Shown one piece after another: positions 13,990 to 58,007 of a DNA stretch of 64,000 bases. Source of the DNA: Patescibacteria group bacterium (GTDB taxonomy: Bacteria; Patescibacteriota; Patescibacteriia; GWA2-46-9); contig JBAYUF010000001.1 in NCBI GenBank assembly GCA_041675205.1, positions 84,863 to 148,862 on the forward strand, written 5' to 3'. Position numbers and translations under genes: made by a program. Below the pieces are notes generated by a model. That model made no database searches and had not been told where the DNA came from. It saw only the letters and a program-made list of their open reading frames with translations. The first letter of the stretch is position 1, and every line of letters begins with the position of its first letter.

Positions 13990-13991
13990 GT

Positions 13992-31039: not shown

Positions 31040-31369
31040 ATGGCAAATACATTTAGCAGCGTTGACGAACAATTGCTTGCCCAAAATAGTGATGTGGGTG
31101 AACAAGAGCGCGCACAGCAACTGCGTGGGCTGCAGTCTATTGCCCGTCGGCAACTCGCCTCGCGGGCGGTGAAAAAGGGTGCTGGGGCAGCAGCCCGTTC
31201 GGGCGCCATGGGGGCCGCAAAAGCCGCTCGAACAATTTGGATTATTATGGCTGCTCTTGCCACCCCGGAAGTCTTGACGGTCGTTATCGTTTTGATGCTT
31301 CTTGTACTCTTCATGAATTACGCCTTATCGATACCAGTTGTCGGCGACATACTGAAGTGGTTTCTATGA
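31040..31369 (+). CDS. small membrane protein (109 aa, C-terminal TM hairpin)
   Basis: 4-nt gap after the giant gene. Its stop overlaps the next start (ATGA). Confidence 0.55.
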   Translation: MANTFSSVDEQLLAQNSDVGEQERAQQLRGLQSIARRQLASRAVKKGAGAAARSGAMGAAKAARTIWIIMAALATPEVLTVVIVLMLLVLFMNYALSIPVVGDILKWFL

Positions 31370-34300
31370 GTTTTCGTGATCTCTTAAAGAAGAAATATAT
31401 ACGTCGTCAGGTATTGATAGCTGCAATGCTCGGTTTCATTGTCATGCTTCCTATCGGTGTTAAGGCAGCAGGGATTGGTGACGGGATTCAGGGGACCATC
31501 TTCGGAGTACTTTCATGGGGCATTTATGGCATTGTGCTCTTTTTATCTCGTTTTACCGTTTGGCTTGTCGGTTTTTTAGTAAGCATCGGACAGTATAACG
31601 GATTTATTAATTCACCAGTTGTGTTGCAGGGTTGGGTGGTATTGCGAGATATATCGAACATGTTCTTTGTACTCATCCTACTTTTGATAGCGTTTGGCAC
31701 CATCCTTCATATTGAGCAATATCAAATGAAACGATTGCTGCCCAAAGTGCTCCTCATGGCAATCTTGGTTAACTTTAGTAAAGCCATCGCCGGGCTGCTG
31801 ATTGATTTCTCACAAGTTATAATGCTCACTTTTGTGGCGGCGTATCAGGCTGCCGGAGCGGGGAATTTAGCGCAGGCAATGCATCTAGATAAAATTTTAG
31901 CAATAAAAAATACAGAGGATGGTGGTTTGTTTGATGAAGCTGCTGCCGAGACGCTCGTGGCATTACTACTTGCACTTGTATACATAGTCGTTGCCTCGGT
32001 TGTTGTTGGGGCTTTTGCGGTGATACTTGTGGTACGAATGGTGATGTTGTGGTTGCTCATCATTTTTTCACCACTCGCCTACGTCCTTTCCGTTGTGCCT
32101 ATTGGGCAAAAGTATGCCAGTCAGTGGTGGGAAAATTTTGCAAAATATGTAATTTTAGGTCCGGTCATGGCATTTTTCTTGTGGCTATCACTCGCCACAC
32201 TGCCGACCCTTATTGCAAGTGACGCCGACCTTGCTGTTCGTACACAATCAAGCGGTAGCGCACAATCACTCGCCGAAGAGAAAGAGCAAGTCAAAACCAT
32301 CGGTATTACAGAGATTGGCTCTGGGTCTGTGATGTCCGGATTTCTCATCAGCATCGTTATGCTCTTTGCGTCGCTCATGTTTGCAATCCAGACTGGTGGC
32401 GTGGTTGGGAAGATTGCTGGTGGTGCCTATGGTCAATTACTGAGTAAAGGCACCACAGTGGCAAAGATACCATTAGGCCTTGCCAGTTGGGGAGAAAGAA
32501 AGGTTGCTCGCATGACGGGTGGTGTAACCGCATTTCTGAACCCAGTCCGGGTTGCTCGGGCTTGGCGTGGTTACGCTGCACACAAAGCGGGTCGTGAGGA
32601 GGCAGAAATTGGCTATCGAGCAGGGAGCGCCGCTAGTGCTCATTTTGCCGCTGGTCGAGGGGTGCGCGGCGCACTGCGATTAATGGCCGGAGCGCATGAA
32701 GATGCTTTTGAAACGTATATGGGAACGCATGGAGTGATGCGTTTTGTCAAAACCATGAGCGGCAACAGTAAAACAGGTACGAATGATTTTCTTGATGCGA
32801 AACGATTACAGCAAGAGGCAGATATTGAGCGGGAAACTTTCAATGCCGCAACTGATAAGGGGCGAGTAGATAAGATTCGGCAAATTGGAAAAGAGCACTA
32901 TGCCGACAAATTTCGTACCAAGATTATGAAGGAGGAAGTTGATCGCGTCAGTGTTATTCGTGGTTTTGGGAAAAGCGACAATAAACTTGACCCCTATAAT
33001 TCACGTAAAGAAATTAACGATGAAGGTAAGCAAGAAGTAGTTACCCTTAAAGACGCAGCAGAAAAAGCAGGCGTTGATTTAACAGACACTAGCAGTAGTA
33101 CAACACAGGCGTTTCTGCGTGAATGGGATGAAGATAATGCCCGTCGTGATTTAGGTAAGCGGCCAGGTGGTTTGGAGGGTCGGGTGAGCGCACTTGTTGC
33201 AAAAAAGGGCGATGCTGATATTTTGGACCAAGGCAAACGTACGCTCGGTGAGAAATTAAAAGCGCAAGAATCCTATGTTACGGAGCTTATGGCGGGTGGG
33301 CTTTCGAGCACAGAAAAAGCAACACGTGAGCAACAAGAAAAGACAGTAGATGAAGAATTACGACGTATTACTGCGGCGCTTAAAACGGCAAGTGGTGTTG
33401 AGAAACAATCACTCAACGCACTAAAGACAGAATTACAGAAAGAAAAAAAGAGTGGTCGATTTGATAAAGACACTGCAGGTAACTACTTACTGACCAAGAA
33501 AGAACGGGATGAAAATAAAGAGAAAATTAAAGACTTCAGTGATCCTCGCCGGGCTGATTACAGCAGTGCGCTTAAAGAGCAGAAAAAGCTTTACGGGATG
33601 ACGTTAGACCCAGCCGACGCCGCAGAAAAGATGGAAATTGACCGTGCGAAAGCGAAGGCAGATGAAATAATGGCTCGTAGAAAGGAGCCAGATGTGGCAC
33701 CTCGCCCGTATTTTGCCGAACAAGCATTCAGGCATTTAGAGTCGGAAGAATCGTCGAAATTACCGCGCGAAGCCATGGAGTACGACGAAATTGATGCATT
33801 ACTGAAAGATGCATTACATGAGGGGAACATCGTGAAAACATCAGCGCTCATGAAGAAAGCGGCGAAAGATGCTAACGACAACGAAATTTGGAATAGTTTC
33901 GGTTATGGTAGTGGGCCCGAAGGTGCTGAGCAATTTAGAAAGGCAAAACTTGTCCCATTAATGGGGGACCAGGCCTCAATGTCACTCATGAGTGAGCTGA
34001 ACTATATTAACGAAGATATTGGTCACACTAACACCACTCGTTCGTATGGGGTGAGGAATGGTTCATACTATAAGAAATCTGCAGCTGAGCAATCGGCATC
34101 CGCGGCGTGGGAAGTAACGAAACGGCAATCACGAAACTTTTTGCAAAATACAAACCGACTTGGTTTTGGGTATGAAGATACTGAAGGCAAGTTTCACCTT
34201 GATTTAACTGGCAAGCTTATCATTTCATCAATGCAAAATGACATGAATTACCGGTTGAATCGAAAAGAGTTTAACAACAACCTATTGTTGAAATTACTAG

Positions 34301-34455
34301 AAGACGTAGATTCGCTCGACGACATGGTACGACGGGGTCTATTGCGGAGAGATTTGGTTGATAATATGAAGTCGCTAGGCCGAGAACATGTGCGGCGCGG
34401 TGTACCGAATAGCCCGGGTGGTTTTGAGTCAATGGCACGGCAGCTTTCCGTTTAG
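31366..34455 (+). CDS. VirB6/TrbL-like polytopic membrane protein with a ~600-aa coiled-coil-rich hydrophilic C-terminal extension (TcpH/PrgH-like architecture)
   Basis: ≥7 TM segments in the first ~400 aa, then a K/E-rich region. Start chosen at the ATGA overlap rather than the track start 31237. Confidence 0.6.
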   Translation: MSFRDLLKKKYIRRQVLIAAMLGFIVMLPIGVKAAGIGDGIQGTIFGVLSWGIYGIVLFLSRFTVWLVGFLVSIGQYNGFINSPVVLQGWVVLRDISNMFFVLILLLIAFGTILHIEQYQMKRLLPKVLLMAILVNFSKAIAGLLIDFSQVIMLTFVAAYQAAGAGNLAQAMHLDKILAIKNTEDGGLFDEAAAETLVALLLALVYIVVASVVVGAFAVILVVRMVMLWLLIIFSPLAYVLSVVPIGQKYASQWWENFAKYVILGPVMAFFLWLSLATLPTLIASDADLAVRTQSSGSAQSLAEEKEQVKTIGITEIGSGSVMSGFLISIVMLFASLMFAIQTGGVVGKIAGGAYGQLLSKGTTVAKIPLGLASWGERKVARMTGGVTAFLNPVRVARAWRGYAAHKAGREEAEIGYRAGSAASAHFAAGRGVRGALRLMAGAHEDAFETYMGTHGVMRFVKTMSGNSKTGTNDFLDAKRLQQEADIERETFNAATDKGRVDKIRQIGKEHYADKFRTKIMKEEVDRVSVIRGFGKSDNKLDPYNSRKEINDEGKQEVVTLKDAAEKAGVDLTDTSSSTTQAFLREWDEDNARRDLGKRPGGLEGRVSALVAKKGDADILDQGKRTLGEKLKAQESYVTELMAGGLSSTEKATREQQEKTVDEELRRITAALKTASGVEKQSLNALKTELQKEKKSGRFDKDTAGNYLLTKKERDENKEKIKDFSDPRRADYSSALKEQKKLYGMTLDPADAAEKMEIDRAKAKADEIMARRKEPDVAPRPYFAEQAFRHLESEESSKLPREAMEYDEIDALLKDALHEGNIVKTSALMKKAAKDANDNEIWNSFGYGSGPEGAEQFRKAKLVPLMGDQASMSLMSELNYINEDIGHTNTTRSYGVRNGSYYKKSAAEQSASAAWEVTKRQSRNFLQNTNRLGFGYEDTEGKFHLDLTGKLIISSMQNDMNYRLNRKEFNNNLLLKLLEDVDSLDDMVRRGLLRRDLVDNMKSLGREHVRRGVPNSPGGFESMARQLSV

Positions 34456-34467: not shown

Positions 34468-35892
34468 ATGCCAATAACAAAAAAAAATGAAACAATCGAG
34501 GTGGTGGCGAAAGCGCTACCCAATCCAGCATATTTAGAATCGGTTACAAAATATTTCCACGAGCAAGTTTTCGTGGAAGATAATGCTCGAGAGGCCGATA
34601 GGTTTTATCGTGTTTTGGTCGAACTGTTACCGAAAGACTCTTTTAAAGAGCGATACCCAGAGCTCTACACTGGCTATGAAAAGCTGCTGTATGAATGTCA
34701 ATTCTATGCCTTTGCTTGGTTGACTGAAGATGAGGCTCTCAACCTAGTGCGTAATCATTTTTCCCTTGCGTTCCAGCTCTCCGCTATTTTAGAGCTCCGC
34801 CGGAAAATAAGAGTTAAACTTATCGCTGATTATCAGATAGAGGCACGTGATGCTTTCAAGGAAAAGTTACGGCGAGCAGCAGAACAAAATACTGAAGTCA
34901 TTACTGGTAAGCAGCTGCAGCAAGACGGAGCTGCTACAACAGCCCCTCCAACGGTTGGCAATTGGATCAGAAATTATGTGGGTGCTGTTGGTACAGCAGG
35001 GCCGGTGGACGCGCTCCGACAAGCCGAATATTTTACAAAAAATAAGAATTTTGACGCACTGACACAGACGGAGAAAGAGGGCATTCGGTGGTTATTGGAA
35101 ATATACGAGTCACTTCGGTGGTCGTCTTTGACACCGGAAGGTTTAGAGGAAGTACTCTCTACAAATATTGATGGGAAAGAGGTGCTCATTAGTGGAGGGG
35201 AGGTGGAGGAAATTTCTCCTGAAATCCGTAAGCTGGTGCAGAAATTTCAAGAAGTAGGGCTCATTTCTGAGAGTGAAAAACCTTCGCCTGCCGTGCTTGA
35301 AGCTGCTGTGGCGGCATCTACTGTTATTGCAGAAAAACCCGTCGCGATGCCGCCGCTTGTTCTCCCTGTTGCCCCTGCACTTGTGACTGGTGAATTGCCA
35401 CGCATTTCTGCCTTGCCTGCTCCGCCAGTGGTTTTACCATTACCTCCAGTTGCACCAATTATAATTCCAAAGCCACCTGCAGCTGAACCACGGGTTGAAA
35501 AAATTATTAATCCCACTCCGCAAAAGGTGGTGGTCACTAAAACGAGCGAGTCGCCATCAATGGTTGACGTGAAACGGTTTGGCGGTGCTGTTGGGCCAAT
35601 TGATGAGTTACGACTTTCGACACTGAATGATTTTCGTAAACTTGACCCAGATCCAGCTGAGGCGGCGAAGCGAATACTGCAAAAGATTCACCTCCTTGAA
35701 GATGAATCATATGATCGGAAGGCCGACGCCATTCGTGCCTGGCGACAAAGCCCCGTTCATCGATTGTATTTAGACGTCATCGACGAGAGTGTTCGCACAG
35801 GTATGCCAGTAACCGAACTCTTTGAGAAATACAACGTGCGCCAAACGGAATGGGAAGCACTTGGCACGTTATCTCGTGATTTGAGTAGCTAA
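34468..35892 (+). CDS. hydrophilic hypothetical protein (474 aa) with a Pro/Ala/Val-rich linker
   Basis: Clean ORF with no TM segment. PVAMPPLVLPVAPALV…PPVVLPLPPVAPIIIPKPPAAEP. Confidence 0.55.
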   Translation: MPITKKNETIEVVAKALPNPAYLESVTKYFHEQVFVEDNAREADRFYRVLVELLPKDSFKERYPELYTGYEKLLYECQFYAFAWLTEDEALNLVRNHFSLAFQLSAILELRRKIRVKLIADYQIEARDAFKEKLRRAAEQNTEVITGKQLQQDGAATTAPPTVGNWIRNYVGAVGTAGPVDALRQAEYFTKNKNFDALTQTEKEGIRWLLEIYESLRWSSLTPEGLEEVLSTNIDGKEVLISGGEVEEISPEIRKLVQKFQEVGLISESEKPSPAVLEAAVAASTVIAEKPVAMPPLVLPVAPALVTGELPRISALPAPPVVLPLPPVAPIIIPKPPAAEPRVEKIINPTPQKVVVTKTSESPSMVDVKRFGGAVGPIDELRLSTLNDFRKLDPDPAEAAKRILQKIHLLEDESYDRKADAIRAWRQSPVHRLYLDVIDESVRTGMPVTELFEKYNVRQTEWEALGTLSRDLSS

Positions 35893-35894: not shown

Positions 35895-36326
35895 ATGCAG
35901 CAGTTTATTATTCCCCAGTTCATTGATGAAGAACCCCATATTCTTGGGCCGATAACTGTTCGACAGTTTTTGCTGCTTCTCATTGCGGGCTTCTTTATTT
36001 TCCTCAGCTATCGACTCGCGGATACTGCCTTATTTATTGTGCTGACCATAGTACTACTCATCATAAGCATAACTTTGGCATTCGTTCGGGTGAACGGTCG
36101 CCCTTTTCATTTCTTTTTGCTAAATTTAGTGCAGACATTGCAACGTCCTCGGTTACGCATTTGGCGCAAAGAAGTGAGCAGAGAAGAAATTCAGGACGAA
36201 TCAAAAATGCCAGTCCTCGTCCCAACTGTCATAGTGGCGAAAGCGCCCATTAGTCGTTCCCGTTTGGCGGAACTCTCACTCATTGTTGATACGGGTGGGG
36301 CATATGCTGGTACTGAAGGTAATTAG
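35895..36326 (+). CDS. VirB3/TcpE/PrgI-like small membrane protein (143 aa, two TM helices)
   Basis: Size, two-helix topology and its position immediately upstream of VirB4. Confidence 0.45.
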   Translation: MQQFIIPQFIDEEPHILGPITVRQFLLLLIAGFFIFLSYRLADTALFIVLTIVLLIISITLAFVRVNGRPFHFFLLNLVQTLQRPRLRIWRKEVSREEIQDESKMPVLVPTVIVAKAPISRSRLAELSLIVDTGGAYAGTEGN

Positions 36327-36343: not shown

Positions 36344-37045
36344 GTGGCTAAAAGAAAGGCAAACAAGGCAACACTGAGTACCCAGCGATTTCTAGAAATC
36401 GCTGAAGTGCATGATGATACCGTTGTCCTTAAGGATGGTAGCCTGCGTGCGGTACTACTTGTTTCGTCAATCAATTTTGCCTTGAAGTCAGACGATGAAC
36501 AGGAAGCGATTATTCAGGGATATATGAGCTTCTTGAACTCTATCGATTTTTCGCTTCAAGTGGTTATGCAATCTCGCCAGCTGAATATCGCTGGCTACCT
36601 TGATAAGTTAACAGCCATTGAGCGTGAGCAGACTAACGAGCTCTTAAAGATGCAGACGGGTGAGTACCGTCAATTTATTAGAGAATTGGTTGAATTGGGG
36701 CAGATTATGAATAAGCGGTTCTATGTGGTGGTGCCATATCAACCTGGGAGCGACAGTCAAAAGCCATTTTTTGCACGACTCCGTGAGGTGTTGCGACCAG
36801 CTTCAATCTTGCGTCTCAGTGAGGATCGGTATCTTCGGCATCGACATGAATTAATGCAGCGGGTTGATCATGTGACGAGCGGGCTTAATTCTTTAAGCCT
36901 CGAAGTTCGCATGCTTGATACACAGACGTTAGTTGAACTGTATTATGGAACGTATAATCCTGAGAGTGCGCGGTTAGCGCCACTTGTTGATCTCCATGAT
37001 TTGCAGGTCGATGATACGGCGTTCCGTTCTACACCATCACTATGA
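36344..37045 (+). CDS. N-terminal domain of a Gram-positive-type VirB4 ATPase, encoded as a separate ORF
   Basis: The [38 protein letters not shown] … RFYVVVPYQP pattern matches what I recall of TcpF/PrgJ N-termini (uncertain). Stop overlaps the next ATG (ATGA). Confidence 0.5.
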   Translation: MAKRKANKATLSTQRFLEIAEVHDDTVVLKDGSLRAVLLVSSINFALKSDDEQEAIIQGYMSFLNSIDFSLQVVMQSRQLNIAGYLDKLTAIEREQTNELLKMQTGEYRQFIRELVELGQIMNKRFYVVVPYQPGSDSQKPFFARLREVLRPASILRLSEDRYLRHRHELMQRVDHVTSGLNSLSLEVRMLDTQTLVELYYGTYNPESARLAPLVDLHDLQVDDTAFRSTPSL

Positions 37046-38898
37046 TTACCTTGAATCGAAATAAAAAAAAGATTGCTGCCGCTGCTGAATCCGTTTCGGT
37101 CGAATCTTCAGCGCAGAGCCGAGAGGCGTTGGAGATCGCAAGAGTTTACCAGAAAGGCGTTATTCGATTGCGTGATATTGTCGCGCCGACTGCGTTTGAG
37201 GTTGAAGCATCGTATATTAAGTTGAATGACCAGTACGTGCGCACACTCTTCATAACAGAGTATCCACGGTACATCTCGGTTGGTTGGTTCGCACCACTCA
37301 TCAATGTTAGTACAACCATTGATCTGGCACTCTATATTTACCCAGTGAGTTCGGGAATTGTTTTAAAGCAACTCCGAAACAAGGTGGGGTCACTGGAAGC
37401 AGAAATTATCGCGGAGCACGAAAAGGGTGCACCGCGCGATCCTATTAAAGAAACAGCATTAAAGGATATTGAACGACTCAGAGATGACCTGACACAGGGG
37501 GTAGAGAAGTTCTTTCAATTTGGGCTTTATGTGACGTTGTACGCTGATACGCTTGAGCATCTTGATAGGACAACAGGGGATATCGTGCAGCTGCTTGGCA
37601 CGAAGCTTGTCTATGCTCGAAAGGTGCTCTATCAGGCAGAGCAAGGCTTTATTTCAACCGTCCCACTTGGCGTTGATGAACTGCAGATTACCTTCAACAT
37701 GAACACGTCACCTATTTCTTCTGCGTTTCCCTTTGTTTCTTCAGAACTGACTAGTGACGACGGCATACTGTACGGTATCAATAGGCACAATAACAGCCTC
37801 ATTCTCTTTGATCGGTTCTCGCTGCAGAATGCGAATACGGTCGTGTTCGCCACCTCTGGAGCTGGAAAATCGTACACTATTAAGCTTGAGGTACTGCGGT
37901 CCCTTATGCTTGGGGTGGACGTTATTGTGATTGACCCTGAAAAGGAATATCAACACCTTTCTGAAGCGGTCGGTGGCACCTACTTAAATATTTCATTGGC
38001 CAGCGAAAGCAAGGTAAACCCTTTTGATTTACCGCGCGGTATTGGTGACGATATACAGACAGGGGACGTCATTCGTAGTGCCGTCATTACGCTGAAGGGA
38101 TTACTTCGTATCATGCTCGGTACGTTAACAAGCGAAGAGGATTCGCTGCTTGATCGCGCCCTCTTGGAAACATATGCCAAAAAAGACATTACACCCGAAT
38201 CTGACTTAACCCGAGTAGAGCCACCAATTTTGGCCGACCTGGAAGACGTTTTGAACGGTATGCAAGGCACGCAAGATATGGTGGCCCGGTTGCAAAAATA
38301 TACCAAGGGGACGTTTGCCGGACTTTTGAATAGCACAACAAACGTCGTCACTGATAATCAACTAATTGTTTTTTCAATCCGAGATTTGGAAGATGAATTG
38401 CGACCAATTGCAATTTACACAATTATAAACCACATTTGGAATTTGGTTCGCAGCGAGCGAAAGAAGCGGATTCTTGTAATTGATGAAGCCTGGTGGATGA
38501 TGCAGCACGAAGACAGCGCCAAGTTTATATTTGCGTTAGTGAAACGGGCTCGTAAATACTATCTTGGGGTAACGACTATCACGCAAGACGTCAGCGACTT
38601 TTTAAGTTCACCGTATGGATTAGCGGTAGTGAATAACTCAGCGATGCAACTCTTGTTGAAACAGTCACCAGCCGCCATTGATTTGGTACAGAAGACATTT
38701 CTTTTGACTGAAGGCGAGAAGTACCTGCTACTGGAGGGCAGTGTTGGTGAAGGCATTTTCTTTGCTGGGCCGAAGCATGCGGCTATTAAAGTTGTGGCTT
38801 CGTATACGGAAGATCGTTTGATTACAACTGACCCACGGCAACTCTTAGAAATGGAGGCGGCGGCAAAGCGCGACAACGCTACACCGCCAGTAGCATAA
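37042..38898 (+). CDS. VirB4/TrbE/CagE-family T4SS ATPase (C-terminal 618 aa including ATPase core)
   Basis: YVRTLFITEYPRYISVGWFAPLIN block. Walker A FATSGAGKSYT. Walker B/DEAW block ILVIDEAWWMM. Confidence 0.8.
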   Translation: MITLNRNKKKIAAAAESVSVESSAQSREALEIARVYQKGVIRLRDIVAPTAFEVEASYIKLNDQYVRTLFITEYPRYISVGWFAPLINVSTTIDLALYIYPVSSGIVLKQLRNKVGSLEAEIIAEHEKGAPRDPIKETALKDIERLRDDLTQGVEKFFQFGLYVTLYADTLEHLDRTTGDIVQLLGTKLVYARKVLYQAEQGFISTVPLGVDELQITFNMNTSPISSAFPFVSSELTSDDGILYGINRHNNSLILFDRFSLQNANTVVFATSGAGKSYTIKLEVLRSLMLGVDVIVIDPEKEYQHLSEAVGGTYLNISLASESKVNPFDLPRGIGDDIQTGDVIRSAVITLKGLLRIMLGTLTSEEDSLLDRALLETYAKKDITPESDLTRVEPPILADLEDVLNGMQGTQDMVARLQKYTKGTFAGLLNSTTNVVTDNQLIVFSIRDLEDELRPIAIYTIINHIWNLVRSERKKRILVIDEAWWMMQHEDSAKFIFALVKRARKYYLGVTTITQDVSDFLSSPYGLAVVNNSAMQLLLKQSPAAIDLVQKTFLLTEGEKYLLLEGSVGEGIFFAGPKHAAIKVVASYTEDRLITTDPRQLLEMEAAAKRDNATPPVA

Positions 38899-39455
38899 TG
38901 TATATGACTCGACGAACAAAGATAATAATAGGTGTTGGGTTCTTGTTGGGCGTTGGAGTGCTCCTATACTTTCTCTTTCAATCTCGACAAACCCCGCCAG
39001 AGGTTACTCCGCCACCGGCAAAGCCAGCAGTTGAAAATAGAGACGATGGTACTGCCCAGGTGATTGGTGGCGTCGAACCTACCCCAGAAAGCACAGCGCT
39101 TCGAACTGCCCGGTTTGTCGCAGAGCGGTACGGTACGTTTTCGAGTGATGAAGGTCTGAATGGGGTGCAAGAATTAGTCGCTGTTTCTACGCCTCAAACC
39201 ACTGAATGGCTAACGGGAATCTACATACCGCAAGTAACATCGCGAATGAAAACTAGTGTATTTTACGCTGAATCTGCTCGCGTGCTTGCGGCAACAATCA
39301 TTACGATAAACGATACAACCGCCGGCGTTCATATTCGTCTACAGCGTCAAATTACTGAAGGGAGCGAAGAACGGATGAATAATGCTGAATTGGATATTGA
39401 ACTGACGCGAAGTGGGAACACGTGGCTTGTTTCAGGCATTTTTGAAGACCGCTGA
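38898..39455 (+). CDS. bitopic membrane protein (N-in, single TM, ~150-aa extracytoplasmic domain), VirB8-like in architecture
   Basis: Start overlaps the VirB4 stop (TAATG). 185 aa. Possibly NTF2-like. Confidence 0.4.
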   Translation: MYMTRRTKIIIGVGFLLGVGVLLYFLFQSRQTPPEVTPPPAKPAVENRDDGTAQVIGGVEPTPESTALRTARFVAERYGTFSSDEGLNGVQELVAVSTPQTTEWLTGIYIPQVTSRMKTSVFYAESARVLAATIITINDTTAGVHIRLQRQITEGSEERMNNAELDIELTRSGNTWLVSGIFEDR

Positions 39456-40168
39456 TGAGCGCAGTTGTTGAAGTATGGCGCTGGCTTACAGACGTAATCC
39501 AGCGTTTACTTTTTCCAGTGTTTTGTTTGCGCTGCGGCGTGGAAGGTGATTTTTTATGTGCTGCTTGTCAAAAAACTGTGCCACCGGTGCCGGTTCAAGT
39601 CTGTGTTTTTTGCTCGGTGTCCAGCCCCAATGGGCGTACGTGCAGTGCCTGCAGCCGACATGCGCTTGACGGCGTTTGTGTGCGTGGCATGTACGATGAC
39701 TGGAGTTGGCGGGTGCTCATTACGGCCTGGAAATTTCATGGTGCAGCAATCACGCCGCTCCTCAGTCGGCTTCTTGAGGATAGTATCGCCGTGCTTCCAG
39801 AAAGTTATCGGACTGGGAAGTTTATGGTAGTTCCAGTACCGCTTGCTAGACGTCGACAACGTGAGCGGGGTCGAAATCAATCAGCGGAGCTCGCGAATGC
39901 GCTTGTCGGTCATCAGTTGATTGTAGCTGCGCTTACTCGTGTTCGAGAGACCGCCCAACAATCGCAGTTATCAAAAAAAGATAGGATACGAAATGTTCAT
40001 GCTGCCTTCAAAGCTAATCCTGCGCTTGTGCAACCGGACACAAACTATCTGCTCATCGACGACGTAGTCACTACTGGGGCTACGCTTGAACAAGCGGCGC
40101 AGGCGCTTAAAGAAGTCGGCGCAACGTCTGTTTGGGCAGTTACTCTAGCAAGAAGTCGCTTGCTTTAA
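39455..40168 (+). CDS. comFC: ComF family protein (ComFC): N-terminal 4-Cys zinc finger plus phosphoribosyltransferase-type domain
   Basis: CLRCG…CAAC / CVFC…CSAC cysteine pairs. PRTase motif LLIDDVVTTGATL. Start overlaps the previous stop. Confidence 0.8.
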   Translation: MSAVVEVWRWLTDVIQRLLFPVFCLRCGVEGDFLCAACQKTVPPVPVQVCVFCSVSSPNGRTCSACSRHALDGVCVRGMYDDWSWRVLITAWKFHGAAITPLLSRLLEDSIAVLPESYRTGKFMVVPVPLARRRQRERGRNQSAELANALVGHQLIVAALTRVRETAQQSQLSKKDRIRNVHAAFKANPALVQPDTNYLLIDDVVTTGATLEQAAQALKEVGATSVWAVTLARSRLL

Positions 40169-40369: not shown

Positions 40370-40987
40370 TTATTGAAGAATGATCGATTTTAACTCGGCA
40401 ATGTTATTAATTATAAAATCTGGTTTTAAAGCTTCGAGTCTTTCTTTTGTGAAAAATCCCCACGTTACCGCTCCAGTCTTTACTCCCGCGTTTTTGCCTG
40501 CTTCTATTTCATGATTTGAATCGCCGATAAAGATAGTTTCTTCCAATTTAAAATTATTTCTTTTTGTTAATTCATATAGACTTTCGGTTTTGTCATACGC
40601 ATTGGTGATAACATCATAAAAAATATCTTGGAGTCCAAAACTGACAATTTCTGGCAAAAGAGTTTCAGGGAAATCAGAACTTAAAACTGCAATTTTAATT
40701 CCCTTTCTTTTAAAATCTTTAATGCTTTCTACAATTCCAGGATAAGATTTTCCTTTTGGGGATTTAGCGACCGCGCGTCTGTAAGCAGTCTGTTCTTCTT
40801 CAAGAGTAAGATGGGGTGCATATTTATTATAAAAACGCATGTAGGGTTGTTCCCATTCTTCCTTCAACTCTATTAATGAAATTGGTTTCAAGTCTAATTC
40901 CTCAAAAATTCGATTAACAACAATTAGCTGATTTTCAACTGAATCGTTTATCACTCCTGACCAATCAAAAATTATATTTTTAAACAT
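40370..40987 (-). CDS. HAD-superfamily hydrolase (phosphatase-like), in an AT-rich islet
   Basis: Motif I IIFDWSGVI, motif IV IGDSNHEIEAG. Local GC is markedly lower than the window average. Confidence 0.7.
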   Translation of the reverse strand: MFKNIIFDWSGVINDSVENQLIVVNRIFEELDLKPISLIELKEEWEQPYMRFYNKYAPHLTLEEEQTAYRRAVAKSPKGKSYPGIVESIKDFKRKGIKIAVLSSDFPETLLPEIVSFGLQDIFYDVITNAYDKTESLYELTKRNNFKLEETIFIGDSNHEIEAGKNAGVKTGAVTWGFFTKERLEALKPDFIINNIAELKSIILQ

Positions 40988-41133
40988 ACGTATCTATTTT
41001 AAACTTGGATATCTGACGGTGGTGGCCCGCCAAATCAAAGGAATTTCTTCGGACAAGGATTAGTTCACTCCTTCGGCGTGCTCAAAATACATCTTTAGCT
41101 CTAATATTTTACGAAGTTCGCTCTAGTCGACAC

Positions 41134-41211
<78 letters not shown>

Positions 41212-41222
<11 letters not shown>

Positions 41223-41358
41223 ACTACCGACTAGTTTTTCCACCAGAGGCGGATCCACCCTTGGTGGACAAGACTGTCGCCATTGTAACCACCGACTACC
41301 TAGAAGTCCCGCGAAGGCGGGGTCGGACACCTCTCCGCACTACCGACTAGTTTTTCCG
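41212..41358. repeat. direct ~30-bp repeat of the tRNA-Ser(TGA) 5' end plus flank (cacctctccgcactaccgactagtttttcc x2), with a partial anticodon-arm copy between
   Basis: Exact copies at 41212-41243 and 41328-41358. gactgtcgccat recurs at 41272-41283. Confidence 0.7.
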
Positions 41359-41446
41359 CTTTTGGCTGAGCCACTTCTTTACGAGGTAAATATACCAGTG
41401 ATTATGGCGTCGGCATAGTTTAGCTACTTCCCGATCGAATGGCAAA

Positions 41447-43234
41447 TTAACTTTCTAAAAATCCACCAGACTGATGTTCCCATAGTTTTACATAGAGTCC
41501 TTTCTGGTGAATCAATTCCTCGTGTGTGCCATCTTGAACGATTCTTCCTTGGTCTAGAACAATGATTCTATCTAAGTGTTTGATGGTAGAAAGTCGGTGA
41601 GCAATAACCAAAGCGGTTTTTCCTTTCATTAATTCCCAAAGTCCTTCTTGAATATATTTTTCTGACTCAGAATCTAGTGAGCTCGTCGCTTCATCTAAGA
41701 TGAGAATAGGTGCGTTCTTCAGCAGTGCCCGAGCAATGGCGATTCGCTGCCTTTGTCCGCCACTTAACTTGACACCACGTTCACCAACCAGAGTTTCATA
41801 CCCTTGCGGCAGTTGGTTGATGAATTCATCAGCGTGGGCGATTTTTGCTGCTCGTACTATCTCTTTTTTGCTTGCCTTACTATTTCCATAGGCAATATTT
41901 TCAAGCAAAGAACGGTGAAAAAGTAGTGGTTCTTGGGGAACATAACCAATCGCTTCTCGGAGTGAAACCTGACTAACCTTCTGGATATCTGTGTCATCAA
42001 TTGTAATCGTACCTGAGTTAACATCAACAAATCGAAGAAGTAACTTTGTCATCGTTGTCTTTCCGCCACCGCTTGGACCGACTAAACCAATTTTTTGATG
42101 CCCTTCAATTTGAAGGCTAAGGTCACGAAGGAAGGGCGTATGTTCATCATTCCCCGAATAGGTAAAGGTAATTTTGTTGAAACGTATTGCACCGTTTTTA
42201 ACATGAAGCGTGGTTGCTCGGGGAGCGTCTTCAATAAGTGGTGCGGTTAGAAAAAGTTGCGTTAGCTCAGCCGCTTCGCTAACAGAAGATTCAAATTGAC
42301 GGTAGACCTTGTTGATTTCCCAAAGGACTCGCGTAGTGAGAGCGTAGTAGGAAAAAATAATCATAATTGCACCGGCGGACAACCCTAGTTGTTCTGCAAA
42401 TAGTACGGCAGCGATGAGCCCGCAGGTGTTGGTGAGCACATAAATAGGTGAGATTACCGTGTCGAATCTCAGGTTTTGAAAATTTGCTGCCCGTCTGTAT
42501 TTATCAGTAAAGTCAGCAACGTAGGTGCTAAAATTTTCTAATTCCCATTTTTCTTTTGCAAAGGACTTAATAATAATCATGTTGCCGATGGCGTCAGATA
42601 ATTTTCCAGCAACTCTGCTGCTGGCATCATGACGAAGGGATACCAAGTGAGCGCGGCGGCGAATAATTGGTAGAGCGACAACGAGAGCAATCACGATCCA
42701 CATTACAAGTATGAATGGCAGCCACGGTGAGTACTGCCATAGGACAATGAGCGCAAAAAGTATTGGGAAAATATTATTTGTCACACTGAACGCCAGTGTA
42801 TCGGTGAACGTTTCGAAATTTCTAGAGAAGGCCATAGCCTTCTTGGTTAATGAACCAACAAAGTTATTAGCGTAGAAGTCATAATCTCGGTCAGAAAGTC
42901 GTTTAAAAACAATTCTGCCAAGGTTGTAAAAAGCATTGGCTTCGATTTTTACCAAATAATGAAAACCAATTCTCCAAAAAATTTCACCGAGCATCCATAA
43001 ACTTGCAAAAGCAAAGATGTATGGCGCAGCGGTTGTAAGTGAGATGGTGCCATCAGCGACAAAAATGTTAATGAGTCGGCCGACAATGAGTGGGGGGACA
43101 AAAAAAACGAAAATCGTACCAGTTGCTGGCATAAGAAACGCTGCCAGCGAGTACCAGGGGTAGGCCCGGTATTGATCGGTAAAGTCCCGCAGTACTTGTC
43201 GTACTGCATCAGGAGTAATAAGTTGCTCTGCCAT
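41447..43234 (-). CDS. ABC exporter, fused permease/ATPase (MsbA-like multidrug/lipid exporter family)
   Basis: Six TM segments followed by an NBD with Walker A GPSGGGKTT, signature LSGGQRQRIAIARAL and Walker B ILILDEATS. Confidence 0.85.
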   Translation of the reverse strand: MAEQLITPDAVRQVLRDFTDQYRAYPWYSLAAFLMPATGTIFVFFVPPLIVGRLINIFVADGTISLTTAAPYIFAFASLWMLGEIFWRIGFHYLVKIEANAFYNLGRIVFKRLSDRDYDFYANNFVGSLTKKAMAFSRNFETFTDTLAFSVTNNIFPILFALIVLWQYSPWLPFILVMWIVIALVVALPIIRRRAHLVSLRHDASSRVAGKLSDAIGNMIIIKSFAKEKWELENFSTYVADFTDKYRRAANFQNLRFDTVISPIYVLTNTCGLIAAVLFAEQLGLSAGAIMIIFSYYALTTRVLWEINKVYRQFESSVSEAAELTQLFLTAPLIEDAPRATTLHVKNGAIRFNKITFTYSGNDEHTPFLRDLSLQIEGHQKIGLVGPSGGGKTTMTKLLLRFVDVNSGTITIDDTDIQKVSQVSLREAIGYVPQEPLLFHRSLLENIAYGNSKASKKEIVRAAKIAHADEFINQLPQGYETLVGERGVKLSGGQRQRIAIARALLKNAPILILDEATSSLDSESEKYIQEGLWELMKGKTALVIAHRLSTIKHLDRIIVLDQGRIVQDGTHEELIHQKGLYVKLWEHQSGGFLES

Positions 43235-43359
43235 AGACAGTTACTTTAGCCAATTTCGTGAATATGTCCATTATAATAGAAAAAACTTCTGCAATGTGGC
43301 AGAAGAAGTTCAGCTGGTGAGGTAGGTGGAGGATTGTTTCGAAATGATTTCTGAACGAC

Positions 43360-43789
43360 CCTGAGGGAGGGATTTCCGGCGTGTCTCGTCGTCAGCAGTA
43401 CGACTCAGTGCTCTAATTTGAAGGGGAGGGATTCGCCTACAAATCGCTTCGGCTTCCGCCTCAGCGTTCGCAGGCCGCCCCTCGCGGTCTTCGTCGTCAG
43501 CAATACTCCTCAGACATCGCTGCGGGCTTCTCACCCCTCACACGAGCAAATCAATTTGCTCGTTCCCTTCCTCGGAACACTGACATTATTATATTTATCT
43601 TTTGGTATGTTCCTCGGAAGGTGGGTCGGGAATCGGTCACAACTCTCGTCGGCTTCCGCCTCCTCGGTCGCGACCCCGCCTCACGGTCTTCGTCGTCAGC
43701 AATACTCCTCAGACATCGTTCCGGCTTTCGAATCCCTCACGCGAATGAAGCAGTTCATTCGCTCCCTTCCTCGTTCACAAAGTTCACTT
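43360..43789. repeat. array of degenerate tRNA-Ser(GCT) 3'-end copies (43420, 43608) with a 28-31-bp repeat family (43384-43414, 43489-43518, 43690-43720) and repeated hairpin+tcccttcctcg blocks, 3' of the intact tRNA
   Basis: cgtcgtcagcaatactcctcagacatcg occurs twice, ~200 bp apart. gaaggggagggattcgcc and ggaaggtgggtcgggaatcgg mimic the tRNA 3' end. Confidence 0.65.
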
Positions 43790-43879
43790 CGGAAGGGGAG
43801 GGATTCGAACCCTCGGTACGGAAAAAAACCGTACAACGGTTTAGCAAACCGTCGCCTTAGGCCACTCAGCCACCCTTCC
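43790..43879 (-). tRNA. tRNA-Ser (anticodon GCT), long variable arm, CCA not encoded
   Basis: Reverse complement has GGAAGGG/CCCTTCC acceptor, anticodon loop TTGCTAA, a long extra arm and T-loop TTCGAAT. Confidence 0.85.
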
Positions 43880-44099
43880 GTATGCATCTGGCTACGCCAG
43901 ATTATAAAAAACCGTCGGCTTCGTGCCCCCGGGGTTGTTTTTTACAACCCGCCGAATGCTGCGCCTTCTCGCATTCAGCCCACTCAGCCACCCTTCCATC
44001 AAGTATTTAACGTCTGCCAAGTGTAGCCGCGAGGGGTCGATTCGTCAATTGACAAAATTGACCCAACACAGGCATTTCCGTATACTTCTCAAGTAAACT

Positions 44100-44594
44100 A
44101 TGGAAGAGCAAACAGATACAGATAGAAAGCCAGTTCGTTTTCAATGGGTGGTACCGGAGTACCACGAGTATGACCGTAGTCGGGAATGGTATATTGTTGC
44201 GGGGCTATGCGCTCTTTTTTTTCTGGGCATTGCCATTTGGTATCAAAATTTTCTCGGTGCAGTTTTGGTGCTCATCCTGACCATTATTGTGGTTGCCCAG
44301 CATGGTCAAACACCAATTGACGTAGCCGTTGAGCTAAGGGAAGACGGTATTCAGATAGGATCCGCCTTCTTTCATTATCGCGACTTGCAAAGTTTTTGGT
44401 TCATTTATGAGCCGCCTGATGTGAAAACCCTCTACTTTGATTTCCGCAGTCAATGGAGGGTTCGATTGCCTGTTCCATTGCAGGATATGGACCCAGTCGC
44501 CATTCGTGCTATGCTGCTGCAGTATCTTGAGGAGAATTTGGAACGTGAAGCAGAGCCAACCAGTGATTCCTTAAGTCGTTGGTTACAATTATAG
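44100..44594 (+). CDS. hypothetical membrane protein (164 aa, two TM helices)
   Basis: Clean ORF with a hydrophobic hairpin (IVAGLCALFFLGIAIWY / LGAVLVLILTIIVV). Confidence 0.5.
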   Translation: MEEQTDTDRKPVRFQWVVPEYHEYDRSREWYIVAGLCALFFLGIAIWYQNFLGAVLVLILTIIVVAQHGQTPIDVAVELREDGIQIGSAFFHYRDLQSFWFIYEPPDVKTLYFDFRSQWRVRLPVPLQDMDPVAIRAMLLQYLEENLEREAEPTSDSLSRWLQL

Positions 44595-44710: not shown

Positions 44711-46777
44711 GTGAAGTACCATACGTTAACCAGTTCAATTGCAATACTTTCCGGCGTGGGGCCGAAGCGTGCTGCTTTGTTTGCGCAGCTTGGTATTAAC
44801 ACCATTGAAGATTTGCTATTGCATGCCCCCAGCGGCTATGTTGATTATTCACACCTGGCCACGATTGCAGAAGCCGGAGCAGGCGAACCCATTGCGCTGC
44901 GGGGTGAACTATCAAGCGTAAAATCTCGTCGCAGCTTTCGAAATAGAAAAGTATCGATTCATACAGCCACATTTTCAGACGATACTGGCAGCATTCAGGT
45001 AACGTGGTTTAATCGGTTTTCTATTCCTGCACTGCGTAGTGGCCCTGTGTATTTGACGGGTGTAATGCAGCTGGTTGACGGTAAGAAGCAAATTAGTAAC
45101 CCAATCGTTGAATCTGGGGACTGTGAACCGGTCGTCGCAAATCACATACTTGCGGTTTATCCTTTAACAAAAGGGCTTCAGCAGTGGCACGTCCGTCATG
45201 CAGTAGCTGCGGCGTTACCACTGCTTTCTAAATGCACTGACCCACTGCCTGGTCAGATTCGTGTGGCAAATAAGCTCGTTACTTGGTTGGAGTCGATACG
45301 AGATATTCATGCCCCACGTGACTTGCAAGTCGTTTTAACTGCCAGGCGACGGTTGGCCTTTGATGAATTACTAACATTTCGATTGGCACAGGCATTTGTG
45401 GCTCGAGATGCGGGCAAACAACGTTCGCATAAAATTACGGTTTCAGCTTCAAAGCGAGCAACGTTGTTGGCGCAGCTACCATTTCAGTGCACGCCTGAGC
45501 AGCAGCAAGTGCTTGAGGCTGTTTTTGAGGACATTGCGAAATCCAAGCCAGCCCGTCGATTAATTCAGGGTGAAGTAGGAACTGGCAAAACCGTGATTGC
45601 TGGTATGGCGCTTGCGGCTACTGTCCAGCAAGGCTTACAGGGATTGTATCTAACCCCGACCGATGTACTGGCCCGTCAACAGTATGAAACCCTGCATACG
45701 TGGCTAGAAGGCCTTGGGGTTAAGGTTGCCCTACTGACAGCTCGGACAGGCCTGTATGCTGGTCTCCCCGCCACGCCGCTAGCAGTACGAAGGCTTGCAG
45801 CTAGTGGAGAGCCAGTACTATTTGTTGGAACTCATGCGGCTGTTACCCACAAAACGACATTTTTAAAACTCGGGTTGGTTGTAATTGATGAGCAGCACCG
45901 TTTTGGCGTTGGACTTCGTCATCGAGCGTTTCAATCAACCGGCCGTTCACTCGTTCCCCATACTATTTCTATGACCGCCACACCAATTCCGCGAACATTA
46001 CAGCGAGCTATGCTGGAAGGCTTTGTTTATTCGACGCTTCATACGCCGCCGTTTGGTAAGCGACGAGTACACACTGCCATTGTGCCCACAGACAAACGTT
46101 CGATTGCTGAGGCCCGTTTACGAAAACGTTTACAGACAGGTGAGCAGGCCTTTGTTGTTTGTCCGCTCATTGACCCATCAGATGTGCTGGGTGTTCAGTC
46201 AGTGCAGGAAATGTTGCTGCACCTTCGGCACGTTTTACCAGACAGCACTATTGCCGCAGTACATGGGCGTCTTTTGCCGGCGGAAAAAGTGTCTATTTTT
46301 GCTGATTTTAAAGCAGGTAAGATTCAGGTTTTAGTAGCAACAACAGTAATTGAAGTTGGTATTGATGTTCCAGCCGCGACAATAATGGTGATCGAGGGCG
46401 CGGAACGATTTGGCTTAGCACAGCTGCACCAATTGCGTGGACGAGTTGGTCGTGCGGGCGGTGAAGGTTTCTGTTTGCTGTACGTAACCAAAATGACTGC
46501 TCGGGTACTTCACAGGCTGCGTTTATTTGCGAAGACCGATGACGCTTTCCGTTTGGCCGAGTTGGATTTATCACTGCGCGGTCCGGGTGAATGGTTTGGC
46601 TTTCGACAATCTGGTTTTCCTGAGCTGCGATTTGCCGACCTTTCAGATTCCGAAACACGTGCCCTGGCTGATTCAGCGGCGGAGACACTTTTGCGCATTG
46701 ACCCTAAGGGAGCGACGTATCGAAAATATTATGAGGCTGCGCAAAAGCTATGCAGCAGCGCCGATACTGGTCTTTAG
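44711..46777 (+). CDS. recG: ATP-dependent DNA helicase RecG
   Basis: Walker A GEVGTGKT. RecG-type motif VVIDEQHRFGV. Wedge-domain N-terminus. 688 aa. Confidence 0.9.
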   Translation: MKYHTLTSSIAILSGVGPKRAALFAQLGINTIEDLLLHAPSGYVDYSHLATIAEAGAGEPIALRGELSSVKSRRSFRNRKVSIHTATFSDDTGSIQVTWFNRFSIPALRSGPVYLTGVMQLVDGKKQISNPIVESGDCEPVVANHILAVYPLTKGLQQWHVRHAVAAALPLLSKCTDPLPGQIRVANKLVTWLESIRDIHAPRDLQVVLTARRRLAFDELLTFRLAQAFVARDAGKQRSHKITVSASKRATLLAQLPFQCTPEQQQVLEAVFEDIAKSKPARRLIQGEVGTGKTVIAGMALAATVQQGLQGLYLTPTDVLARQQYETLHTWLEGLGVKVALLTARTGLYAGLPATPLAVRRLAASGEPVLFVGTHAAVTHKTTFLKLGLVVIDEQHRFGVGLRHRAFQSTGRSLVPHTISMTATPIPRTLQRAMLEGFVYSTLHTPPFGKRRVHTAIVPTDKRSIAEARLRKRLQTGEQAFVVCPLIDPSDVLGVQSVQEMLLHLRHVLPDSTIAAVHGRLLPAEKVSIFADFKAGKIQVLVATTVIEVGIDVPAATIMVIEGAERFGLAQLHQLRGRVGRAGGEGFCLLYVTKMTARVLHRLRLFAKTDDAFRLAELDLSLRGPGEWFGFRQSGFPELRFADLSDSETRALADSAAETLLRIDPKGATYRKYYEAAQKLCSSADTGL

Positions 46778-48126
46778 GAAGAGAGCGTTTTAAGAAGTGT
46801 GGTCGCTTCTAGAAGTGTTTGTGCGATGAGTTTCTTTGGTTGACTTGGTAATTTTTCGTCCACTCGGGGGCTCGCAATGATTGCTGCAGTAATACCGAGC
46901 CGTTTGGCTGTTTCTAGGCGCCGAGCGGCTTCTGATACAGGACGAACGTCACCGTGCAACCCTAACTCGCCGTACGCCATAAGTGTTCGCGGGACCGGCA
47001 GATTGTGTATGGCACTAATGATTGCAAGCGCTACTGGCAAATCAAGCGCCGGCTCGGTTACTTTTAGTCCTCCAACTAAGTTACAGTGAATATCAAAGTT
47101 CGAAAGTGACTTCCGAAACTGTTTTTCTATAACCGCAGTTATAAGCTGCAAACGATTCGTATCAAAGCCGCTACTCCGTCGTTTGGCATTACCAGAGCGG
47201 GTCGGGGATAGCAAGGCCTGTACCTCGACCAGAAAAACCCGTGAGCCTTGCACAAGCGGCGCAAGCATTGTGCCAGGGACGGGACGTTTCGTGAGATCGA
47301 TGAAGGTAGCCGAAGGGTTTTGTACAGGACACAAACCTGCGGCCGCCATTTGCCACACACCAATTTCTGTAATACCGCCAAATCTATTTTTAATAGCTCG
47401 AAGTATTCGATGTAAGCCGTCGTCGCTTTTTTCAAAGTATAGAACAGTATCAACCGTGTGCTCGATTAGTTTTGGTCCAGCGATGCCGCCGGTTTTTGTA
47501 ACGTGTCCAATGATGACAATGGGTGTTGCTGTATGTTTGGCAATCTCAAGCAGCGCATCTGTTGCATCGGCCAGGTCTCTCGGTCGGTTTGCCGTAGCAC
47601 CGCGTTCTGTGCGCATGGTTTGTAAAGAATCAATAACGACGAGTGCGGGTTTTAGGGTTGCAATGCCATGAGTAATATTTGCAATCGTTGGTTCGTCGAG
47701 AAAGTGCAGTGCGTCATTTGTAATGCCTCCCAAACGGTTCAGACGAAGCCGAACCTGCTCACCTGATTCTTCACCTGAGACGTAGAGAATAGAGCGATTA
47801 GCCAGTGCCAAGTGTCGAGCAATTTGCAGCAGGAGTGTTGATTTTCCTACACCAGGGTCGCCGCCAATCAGAATAAGTGCGCCGGCCACAACTCCACCAC
47901 CCAAGACCCTGTCGAATTCTTCGTCGCCAGTGGGGAAACGGGTTGCGCCTTGTGGTGAGGAAAAATTACGAAGCGACGTTGCCGCCTTTGTGGCAGTAGT
48001 CTTTGCCGCTTTTACAGGCGCTGAAACGATAAGCGTACCCCAGGCTTCACAGTTGCGACATTTACCTTCCCATTTTGGGAAGTGGGCGTTGCAGGCTGCG
48101 CAGGAATAAGAAGCGACCTGTTTCAT
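46774..48126 (-). CDS. radA: DNA repair protein RadA/Sms
   Basis: N-terminal C4 zinc finger (CSAC…CRNC). Walker A GDPGVGKSTLLLQ. Lon-like C-terminal domain. 450 aa. Confidence 0.9.
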   Translation of the reverse strand: MKQVASYSCAACNAHFPKWEGKCRNCEAWGTLIVSAPVKAAKTTATKAATSLRNFSSPQGATRFPTGDEEFDRVLGGGVVAGALILIGGDPGVGKSTLLLQIARHLALANRSILYVSGEESGEQVRLRLNRLGGITNDALHFLDEPTIANITHGIATLKPALVVIDSLQTMRTERGATANRPRDLADATDALLEIAKHTATPIVIIGHVTKTGGIAGPKLIEHTVDTVLYFEKSDDGLHRILRAIKNRFGGITEIGVWQMAAAGLCPVQNPSATFIDLTKRPVPGTMLAPLVQGSRVFLVEVQALLSPTRSGNAKRRSSGFDTNRLQLITAVIEKQFRKSLSNFDIHCNLVGGLKVTEPALDLPVALAIISAIHNLPVPRTLMAYGELGLHGDVRPVSEAARRLETAKRLGITAAIIASPRVDEKLPSQPKKLIAQTLLEATTLLKTLSS

Positions 48127-49191: not shown

Positions 49192-49192
49192 A

Positions 49193-56107: not shown

Positions 56108-56113
56108 CGAACT

Positions 56114-57052: not shown

Positions 57053-57054
57053 CC

Positions 57055-57981: not shown

Positions 57982-58007
57982 TTTTCGATTCACTATTTCG
58001 TTTTCAT

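Follow-up and report, generated by a model that had tools for sequence, protein, structure and literature searches.

The comFC gene and the secretion operon

We analysed a stretch of 64,000 nucleotides (nt) from a Patescibacteria group bacterium (assembly GCA_041675205.1, contig JBAYUF010000001.1, positions 84,863 to 148,862 of the forward strand), which is called the window here. The analysis concerned comFC, a gene of the ComF family, and the genes of a type IV secretion system (T4SS) that precede it. We found that comFC was the final cistron of a T4SS operon that is chromosomal, of the monoderm type (MPF-FATA) and typical of the class ABY1, to which this ultrasmall bacterium belongs. Ten plus-strand genes were located between positions 21855 and 40168, in the order TSP3 protein, giant surface protein, small open reading frame (ORF), polytopic protein, p474, PrgI, TrsD, VirB4, PrgL-like protein and ComFC, and the gaps between them ranged from -4 to +17 nt (Table 1). 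A promoter and terminator scan gave counts near the shuffled expectation and no convincing site at the junction between the PrgL-like gene and comFC. Because the genes were tightly packed and no signal was present at the junction, comFC was most simply read as the last cistron of the T4SS unit.

The 237-amino acid (aa) product had been named ComFC from the letters of the DNA, and the name was confirmed by its zinc ribbon and phosphoribosyltransferase (PRT) domains, its invariant motifs and its fold. It matched Pfam DZR_2 with 28.5 bits (cutoff 27) and Pribosyltran with 31.3 bits (cutoff 26.3). The NCBIfam comF model TIGR00201 was covered completely (model positions 1-190 of 190, E 8e-26), with a score of 91 bits that was below the trusted cutoff of 233.55. 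The GntX model gave 81 bits (cutoff 304). C24, C27, C35, C38, C50, C53 and C66 were invariant in an alignment with 72 homologues, and the same was true of D202, D203, T206, G208 and T210 in the DDVxTTGAT loop of the PRT domain. An AlphaFold2 model calculated from the homologue alignment had a predicted local distance difference test (pLDDT) score of 94. When this model was compared with the PDB using Foldseek, the top match was ComF of Helicobacter pylori (7p0h_A, E 6.7e-9, 219 columns), and catalytic PRTases trailed, the next match being PurF (E 6e-5). By sequence and predicted fold, the protein is a bona fide ComFC. An identical protein was on record from a Patescibacteria metagenome-assembled genome (MAG), on a contig of 245,978 bp (P0001) in which the 185-aa product of the preceding gene was recorded as hypothetical protein WC052_00530. 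ComFC proteins dock on ComEC and guide single-stranded DNA (ssDNA) (PMC12663950; PMC9005727).

The VirB3 (PrgI) and VirB4 labels proposed by the sequence-only reading were confirmed by Pfam PrgI and NF045971, both above cutoff. VirB4 also matched Pfam P-loop_TraG (4e-29). The TrsD-like protein matched the N-terminus of VirB4_plasma (3e-9), and its orthologues bear PF26593, a TraC-like family. The 185-aa protein was examined by several methods. A word-indexed homology search returned the protein itself alone, a PDB profile search gave weak matches driven by the transmembrane (TM) segment only, and Pfam searches with 43 family members gave faint NTF2/SnoaL hints. Its single-sequence model had a pLDDT of 49 and was left out of the fold search. 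An earlier and smaller profile of 43 sequences matched PrgL, the VirB8-like protein of the Enterococcus plasmid pCF10, weakly by hhalign (9%). The profile of 192 sequences matched PrgL with a probability of 89% (E 2.2e-6, 97 columns), and 25 other pCF10 proteins used as controls gave at most 2.6%. The VirB8-like label of this protein was therefore supported, because its profile matched PrgL and the controls did not. The PrgL-like family contained 365 representative clusters, and nearly all of the 150 listed were about 170-225 aa in length.

The polytopic protein had been labelled VirB6-like. Its likely start was the ATG at 31366, since the alignment of relatives begins at this methionine. No match was obtained in Pfam (including 10 orthologues), in a PDB profile search or by hhalign against PrgH. 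This label found no sequence support, and topology and position are what speak for it. Profiles of p474, p109 (the small ORF), p164, p353 and p393 gave nothing significant against the pCF10 proteins. The TSP3-repeat gene was flanked by a gap of 166 nt upstream and 8 nt downstream. The giant protein that follows it bears a CBM_4_9 domain, heads the T4SS unit with the TSP3-repeat protein and is a candidate host-binding adhesin, and many relatives had homologues of it 5′ of the T4SS core. Scans of the large ORFs of the window gave no relaxase and no coupling protein. An origin of the T4SS from a phage, a plasmid or an integrative and conjugative element was considered and rejected; the window contained no relaxase, integrase or coupling protein, and the T4SS was chromosomal and syntenic in 80 genomes.

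Table 1. Positions of the genes and gene groups in the window
Feature	Position	Strand	Basis or remark
Second DsbA and Cys-rich T4SS-pilin-like pair	13216..14990	+	Pfam Thioredoxin_4/DSBA; T4SS_pilin E 0.0026, below cutoff
Membrane-anchored protein with TSP3 repeats, probably encoded first in the T4SS transcription unit	21855..22562	+	Pfam TSP3_bac 1.8e-9; 1 predicted TM
Giant 2821-aa surface protein, candidate adhesin	22571..31036	+	Pfam CBM_4_9 9.7e-12; N-terminal TM or signal segment
Small 109-aa ORF, C-terminal hydrophobic segment, uncertain gene	31040..31369	+	no family detected in relatives
Polytopic membrane protein, at least 7 TM and a long hydrophilic tail	31366..34455	+	TM scan; position conserved
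Conserved 474-aa protein (p474), always between polytopic protein and PrgI	34468..35892	+	no family match
PrgI/VirB3-like membrane protein	35895..36326	+	Pfam PrgI 35 bits (cutoff 27); 2 TM
TrsD-like protein (free-standing VirB4 N-terminal-like domain)	36344..37045	+	NCBIfam TrsD 6.7e-7, below cutoff
VirB4 ATPase, CD1110 (monoderm MPF-FATA) family	37042..38898	+	NF045971 conju_CD1110 344 bits (cutoff 325)
PrgL/VirB8-like bitopic protein, 185 aa	38898..39455	+	N-terminal TM helix and alpha+beta domain of ~120 aa
ComFC (ComF family), double zinc ribbon and type I PRT-fold domain	39455..40168	+	last gene of the plus-strand run
Lineage-specific insert: HAD hydrolase, tRNA-Ser, ABC exporter, tRNA-Ser	40370..43880	-	outside the system
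164-aa two-TM protein (p164), travels with recG in relatives	44100..44594	+	conservation
RecG branch-migration helicase	44711..46777	+	Pfam RecG_wedge, DEAD, Helicase_C
RadA/Sms recombination helicase	46774..48126	-	Pfam AAA_25, ChlI, Lon_C, zinc ribbon
Cys-rich T4SS-pilin-like p353 (48130-49191), DsbA, 393-aa exported protein (p393)	48130..51069	-	shared motif; DsbA Pfam
Type IV pilus genes: pilM, 312-aa ORF, response regulator, pilin, PMT_2 glycosyltransferase, prepilin peptidase pilD	54977..60471	+	
PilM	54977..56107	+	
Pilin	57553..57981	+	
PilD	59698..60471	+	

The junction between the PrgL-like gene and comFC

The start of comFC had been reported to overlap the stop of the VirB8-like gene, and this was correct in position and extent. 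The ORF of the PrgL-like gene ended with the TGA at 39453-39455, and the ORF of comFC began with the ATG at 39455-39457, so that the two shared 1 nt (TGATG). The letters at positions 39446-39460 were gaccgcTGATGagc. Each ORF was the longest and dominant one in its own region.

The overlap had been taken as a sign of translational coupling, and this signal was given little weight. Nine of the 34 pairs of same-strand neighbours in the window overlapped, and a gap of at most 5 nt was observed in 21 of 34. Overlaps were also observed between functionally unrelated genes, such as uvrA/leuS (-8 nt, 17787-17794) and pilD/ligA (-10 nt, 60462-60471), and the gap between ligA and gatC was 0 nt. The 1-nt overlap at comFC said little because unrelated genes commonly overlap in the window. 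In the 14 relatives with adjacent comF, the gap between the PrgL-like gene and comF varied from -10 to about +150 nt, and hairpins were located within some of the spacers (loci L070 and L078). The adjacency of the two genes was conserved and the coupling by overlap was not. As an observation in its own right, the uvrA/leuS and pilD/ligA overlaps indicated that the genome was very compact.

Conservation of the linkage in relatives

A sample based on VirB4 was collected, consisting of 80 loci from species-representative genomes, and the loci were annotated using phmmer, a ComF hidden Markov model and jackhmmer. VirB4 of the window was 67-85% identical to that of these 80 related loci. The records included Uhrbacteria, Falkowbacteria and other Patescibacteria, lineages that GTDB places in the class ABY1. 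The PrgL-like gene was located directly 3′ of virB4 in all 80 loci, and p474, PrgI and TrsD were located 5′ of virB4 wherever the contig was long enough, p474 being present in every locus that extended far enough upstream. The gene after the PrgL-like gene was evaluable in 77 loci, the other 3 of the 80 being on short contigs. This slot was occupied by comF in 14 loci and by radA in 51, on the same strand in both cases, and by another gene in the remaining 12, which mostly carried dsbA followed by radA, or a pilin/DsbA module. When VirB4 was placed in a neighbour-joining tree, the loci with adjacent comF made up the deep branches, which were paraphyletic and contained the window's clade with L003 and L004, and the radA-adjacent loci formed a single large derived clade. 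The expectation that the linkage of comFC to the T4SS would be conserved was therefore borne out in part. It held for the nearest relatives and for a number of deep lineages within ABY1, and it failed where radA occupied the slot.

ComF of the window was about 30-40% identical to every homologue save one, and the genes 3′ of comF varied between loci. Because the adjacency was kept despite this divergence and the differing downstream genes, the linkage was judged to be old. From these comparisons, the comF-T4SS adjacency was specific to part of ABY1 and old there. In a sample based on ComF, 4 of the 7 nearest-homologue contexts were directly after PrgI, TraC-like, VirB4 and p19x genes, and the remaining 3 were beside clpB or smpB/spoIID. 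A broad metagenome sample contained 80 comF loci, of which 42 had sufficient upstream sequence, and virB4 was upstream in none of these 42. In loci that were free of the T4SS, comF was beside clpB (L083, L134 and L148), beside p164 and recG (L123) or near radA (L142, L146, L152 and L168). Three of the last group were checked for composition and were high-GC contigs from outside the candidate phyla radiation (CPR).

Genes downstream of comFC

The lineage-specific insert separated comFC from the p164-recG-radA block, and it was not present at this position in the Uhrbacteria locus L003. A tRNA-Arg gene was located between the p164 gene and recG. The p353, DsbA and p393 genes are likely an accessory module of the T4SS, because in some relatives (L075, L079 and L080) such genes immediately followed the T4SS core. 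For the same reason, comF, recG and radA were regarded as embedded in a T4SS-related neighbourhood. The proteins encoded at 13992-14990 and 48130-49191 were paralogues with a common T4SS-pilin-like hydrophobic core, and each adjoined its own DsbA. This suggests that the Cys-rich pair are disulfide-bonded, VirB2-like pilins with large C-terminal extensions. A separate set of type IV pilus (T4P) genes, with pilM, pilin and pilD, was indeed present about 15-20 kb downstream of comFC, as the sequence-only reading had described.

Comparison with known systems

The window was compared with the ABY1 T4SS described by Quinonero-Coronel et al. (2025, Microb Genom, PMC12102498). That system has a separate TrsD, PrgI, an MPF-FATA-related VirB4 and VirB2-like pilins, and no relaxase. 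VirB8/PrgL homologues were reported to be nearly confined to ABY1, and the ABY1 loci commonly include comF, recG and radA, which was read as functional coordination (PMC12102498). In addition, ksgA was reported near virB4 across classes (PMC12102498). A relaxase and a coupling protein are likewise missing from most Patescibacteria T4SS loci. The components of the window and its neighbours comF, recG, radA and ksgA matched those of the published loci, with no essential difference. Beyond that report, we observed that the PrgL-like gene is universal directly after virB4, that comF and radA alternate in one slot and that the comF overlap is not conserved. A 2024 perspective considered the T4SS as a candidate route of DNA or nucleotide uptake in Saccharibacteria, with ComB of H. 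pylori as the precedent (PMC11665869). Thus, both the comF-T4SS association (PMC12102498) and the idea of ComB-like import (PMC11665869) were already published. The window was one further example of the association, and the comparative detail was sharper.

The prototype of the MPF-FATA type is the Prg/Pcf system of pCF10, which resembled the window in PrgI, a CD1110-family VirB4, a PrgL homologue and upstream adhesin genes. However, pCF10 has the coupling protein PcfC, a relaxase, the hydrolase PrgK and PrgH, none of which was detected in the window, and it exports DNA. The VirB4 of the window was split into TrsD and VirB4, and its operon ended with comFC.

The system had been proposed to be ComB-like. 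The ComB system of H. pylori is a T4SS without VirD4, VirB11 and relaxase that is used with ComFC in transformation, and ComFC of the window shared the fold of H. pylori ComF. In contrast, ComB is of the diderm MPF-T type, contains VirB7, VirB9 and VirB10 and moves double-stranded DNA across the outer membrane, whereas the window system was monoderm-like. No VirB7, VirB9 or VirB10 gene was found in the scans of the window, and its VirB4 gave 115 bits with the VirB4_CagE model (cutoff 643). The system is therefore not a member of the ComB family, because VirB7/9/10 were missing and VirB4 was of the monoderm type. The comF gene of H. pylori is not known to be encoded within the comB operons. The crenarchaeal Ced system uses a VirB4/HerA-like ATPase and membrane partners for DNA import across a single membrane and has no relaxase. 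However, its lineage and partners differed from those of the window system. VirB4 of the window matched CedB with E 1e-13 and 50.8 bits (cutoff 700) and CedD with 23 bits (cutoff 600), and no match to CedA was found in the window. By these comparisons, the system lies outside the ComB and Ced families and could still work like one of them.

Southlakia epibionticum of the Saccharibacteria is the sole genetically studied patescibacterium, and no ABY1 member is cultivated. Like that of the window, its T4SS is chromosomal and of the monoderm type, is accompanied by pilin-like genes and has a gene cluster in which neither a relaxase nor a coupling protein is recognisable. ComEC, ComF, DprA and T4P are present in the Saccharibacteria group. 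A linkage of comF to the T4SS was, in contrast to the window, not reported for S. epibionticum (PMC10633639). Wang et al. (2023, Cell, PMC10633639) showed that this species requires comEC for its transformation, that it grows without ComEC, ComF and DprA, which make no contribution to its fitness, and that it cannot do without the T4SS. The essential role of that T4SS is therefore not competence.

A possible role of the linkage

We tentatively favour the reading that comFC is co-transcribed with the T4SS, that DNA handling and recombination are thereby made together with a host-contact apparatus, and that ComFC works at ComEC as usual. In such a mechanism, comFC would be read through from the T4SS promoter, and the ssDNA-handling protein would therefore be made whenever the host-contact apparatus is built. 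ComFC would attach to the ComEC channel on its cytoplasmic side, where it would bind the incoming ssDNA and pass it to DprA/RecA. RadA and RecG, encoded 4-8 kb downstream, would then extend and migrate the recombination intermediate. RadA extends the transformation D-loop in Bacillota (bioRxiv 10.1101/2024.02.06.579203). The linkage would co-ordinate DNA uptake and recombination with T4SS-mediated contact, in which host DNA is close by. The T4SS is not thereby shown to be the channel for the DNA.

Several observations weighed against this reading. The co-transcription of comFC with the T4SS was deduced from gene spacing, and tight packing is weak evidence for shared function; unrelated genes in the window also overlapped or nearly abutted. 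In several relatives, an AT-rich spacer of 60-150 nt was located between the PrgL-like gene and comF. The loci of the radA type had no comF within 10 kb, and comF was gone from the locus in the derived clade. Part of the comF neighbourhood (recG, radA and clpB) was independent of the T4SS, because comF adjoined clpB, radA or p164-recG in T4SS-free loci. The locus counts were not independent of one another, and one ancestral arrangement together with one inversion, giving the radA state, may explain most of them. ComEC and DprA were found neither in the window nor in ~15 kb of additional flank. Finally, in the closest genome-level relative, L003 (PFET01000001.1, Uhrbacteria CG10_48_11), comF at 12467-13165 contained an in-frame TGA at 12872-12874 while the T4SS was intact. 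This TGA fell at the nearly invariant Gly139. Recoding of UGA as glycine was rejected, since TGA terminates neighbouring genes in L003, and its comF is either a pseudogene or affected by a sequencing error.

It is possible, if doubtful, that the order was simply inherited and that no functional link exists. The T4SS operon, acquired horizontally, would have landed beside an older housekeeping neighbourhood of comF, p164-recG, radA and clpB in the ABY1 ancestor, and compact, slowly rearranging genomes would have kept the order. ComFC would work only with ComEC and the T4P, and the T4SS would serve host interaction through adhesion, a pilus, effectors or nutrient acquisition. This was consistent with the T4SS-free loci in which comF is beside clpB, p164-recG or radA, with the housekeeping genes ksgA, leuS, uvrA and clpB in the same neighbourhood and with the common overlaps of unrelated genes in the window. 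The absence of comF from the locus in at least 51 relatives, its possible decay to a pseudogene in L003 and the T4P genes within the window fit as well, and so does the Saccharibacteria T4SS, which is essential where ComEC, ComF and DprA are dispensable. However, a number of deep lineages within ABY1 kept comF immediately 3′ of the PrgL-like gene despite about 30-40% ComF identity and differing downstream genes. The slot left by comF was taken by radA, another gene of transformation and recombination, and the T4SS accessory genes (pilin-like and DsbA) were interleaved with radA and clpB, which goes beyond mere adjacency.

A role of the ABY1 T4SS itself as a ComB- or Ced-like DNA importer, taking DNA from the medium or an attached host and delivering it to ComFC, RadA and RecG, was considered unlikely. 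The DNA would travel in two steps via ComEC, or directly via a translocon of VirB4, VirB3, VirB6 and VirB8. Canonical export of processed DNA is unlikely because the window has no gene for a relaxase or a coupling protein, and the T4SS block was immediately followed by comF or radA in 65 of 77 relatives. The very strong conservation of VirB4 (67-85% identity) also agreed with import. ComB used with ComEC/ComFC in H. pylori and Ced, to which the CedB match was weak, are precedents, and the same proposal was published, as speculation, for Saccharibacteria (PMC11665869). However, the known docking partner of ComFC is ComEC and not a part of the T4SS, and the window system is outside the ComB and Ced families. 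Most of the ABY1 relatives, and the other classes, had no comF link, and a T4P set was present in the same window. Transformation of S. epibionticum needs comEC, and the essentiality of its T4SS is independent of ComEC. A DNA-import role would be plausible, and the Saccharibacteria genetics argue against it. The more specific form, in which the T4SS would be a contact-dependent DNA importer of a monoderm-like bacterium that hands ssDNA to ComFC and then RadA/RecG, replaces the T4P in competence and perhaps bypasses ComEC, seemed quite improbable.

It was very improbable that the 237-aa protein is an active salvage PRTase whose substrates are brought in by the T4SS, and not a DNA-handling competence protein: its PRT domain has an intact DDVVTTGAT motif of the phosphoribosyl pyrophosphate loop, the NCBI record is named 'phosphoribosyltransferase family protein' and the group of the organism is without de novo nucleotide synthesis, but the protein has the full-length ComF architecture with an N-terminal double zinc ribbon and invariant cysteines, its best family match was ComF/GntX and the fold match to H. 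pylori ComF had an E-value about 10,000-fold better than that of the best enzyme. No catalytic activity is known for ComF proteins.

The stable tie of the ABY1 T4SS to comFC, radA and recG is among the few clues pointing to DNA, and not to protein, as the cargo of the patescibacterial T4SS. A functional link would represent a new way of acquiring host DNA in a group that accounts for a substantial part of bacterial diversity, and it might provide handles for the genetic tractability of environmental CPR lineages. If the T4SS were itself the importer, it would be the first T4SS-based competence outside Helicobacter and archaeal Ced, with direct uptake of host DNA.

Additional observations

Conservation was uneven within the one operon. 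Identity to relatives was 67-85% for VirB4, about 20-36% for the PrgL-like protein and about 30-40% for ComF. In some related loci, small genes of the 23S_rRNA_IVP family (PF05635) were located inside the T4SS operon (L085:1896-2276 and 5608-5967; L088:3396-3773), and one of these insertions was between the PrgL-like gene and comF. In locus L084, the stretch directly 3′ of comF (6737-12708) contained a serine recombinase, several helix-turn-helix regulators, a PD-(D/E)XK protein and a large SMC/AAA_23 ATPase. Its gene content suggests an integrated element, mobile or for defence. Among the MAG records that represent species in GTDB, many of those with the T4SS block (L006, L008-L010 and others) were titled 'uncultured Gammaproteobacteria bacterium' and were apparently mislabelled.

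On the minus strand at 46774-53495, the genes in order of transcription were clpB, p393, dsbA, the pilin-like gene and radA. A clpC-radA arrangement is known from Bacillota, and the clpB to radA order of the window resembled it, with the T4SS accessory genes lying between. The ORF at 43418-44026 (202 aa, p202) was rejected as spurious. It overlapped the tRNA-Ser(GCT) gene at 43789-43880 on the minus strand, and the tRNA explained its apparent homologues. A solitary 16S rRNA gene was located at 1904-3386, and the next gene downstream was a minus-strand sugar dehydrogenase gene. The rRNA operon was regarded as unlinked because no 23S or 5S gene adjoined the 16S gene. A parB gene was located at 7366-8157, and this region may be near the replication origin.

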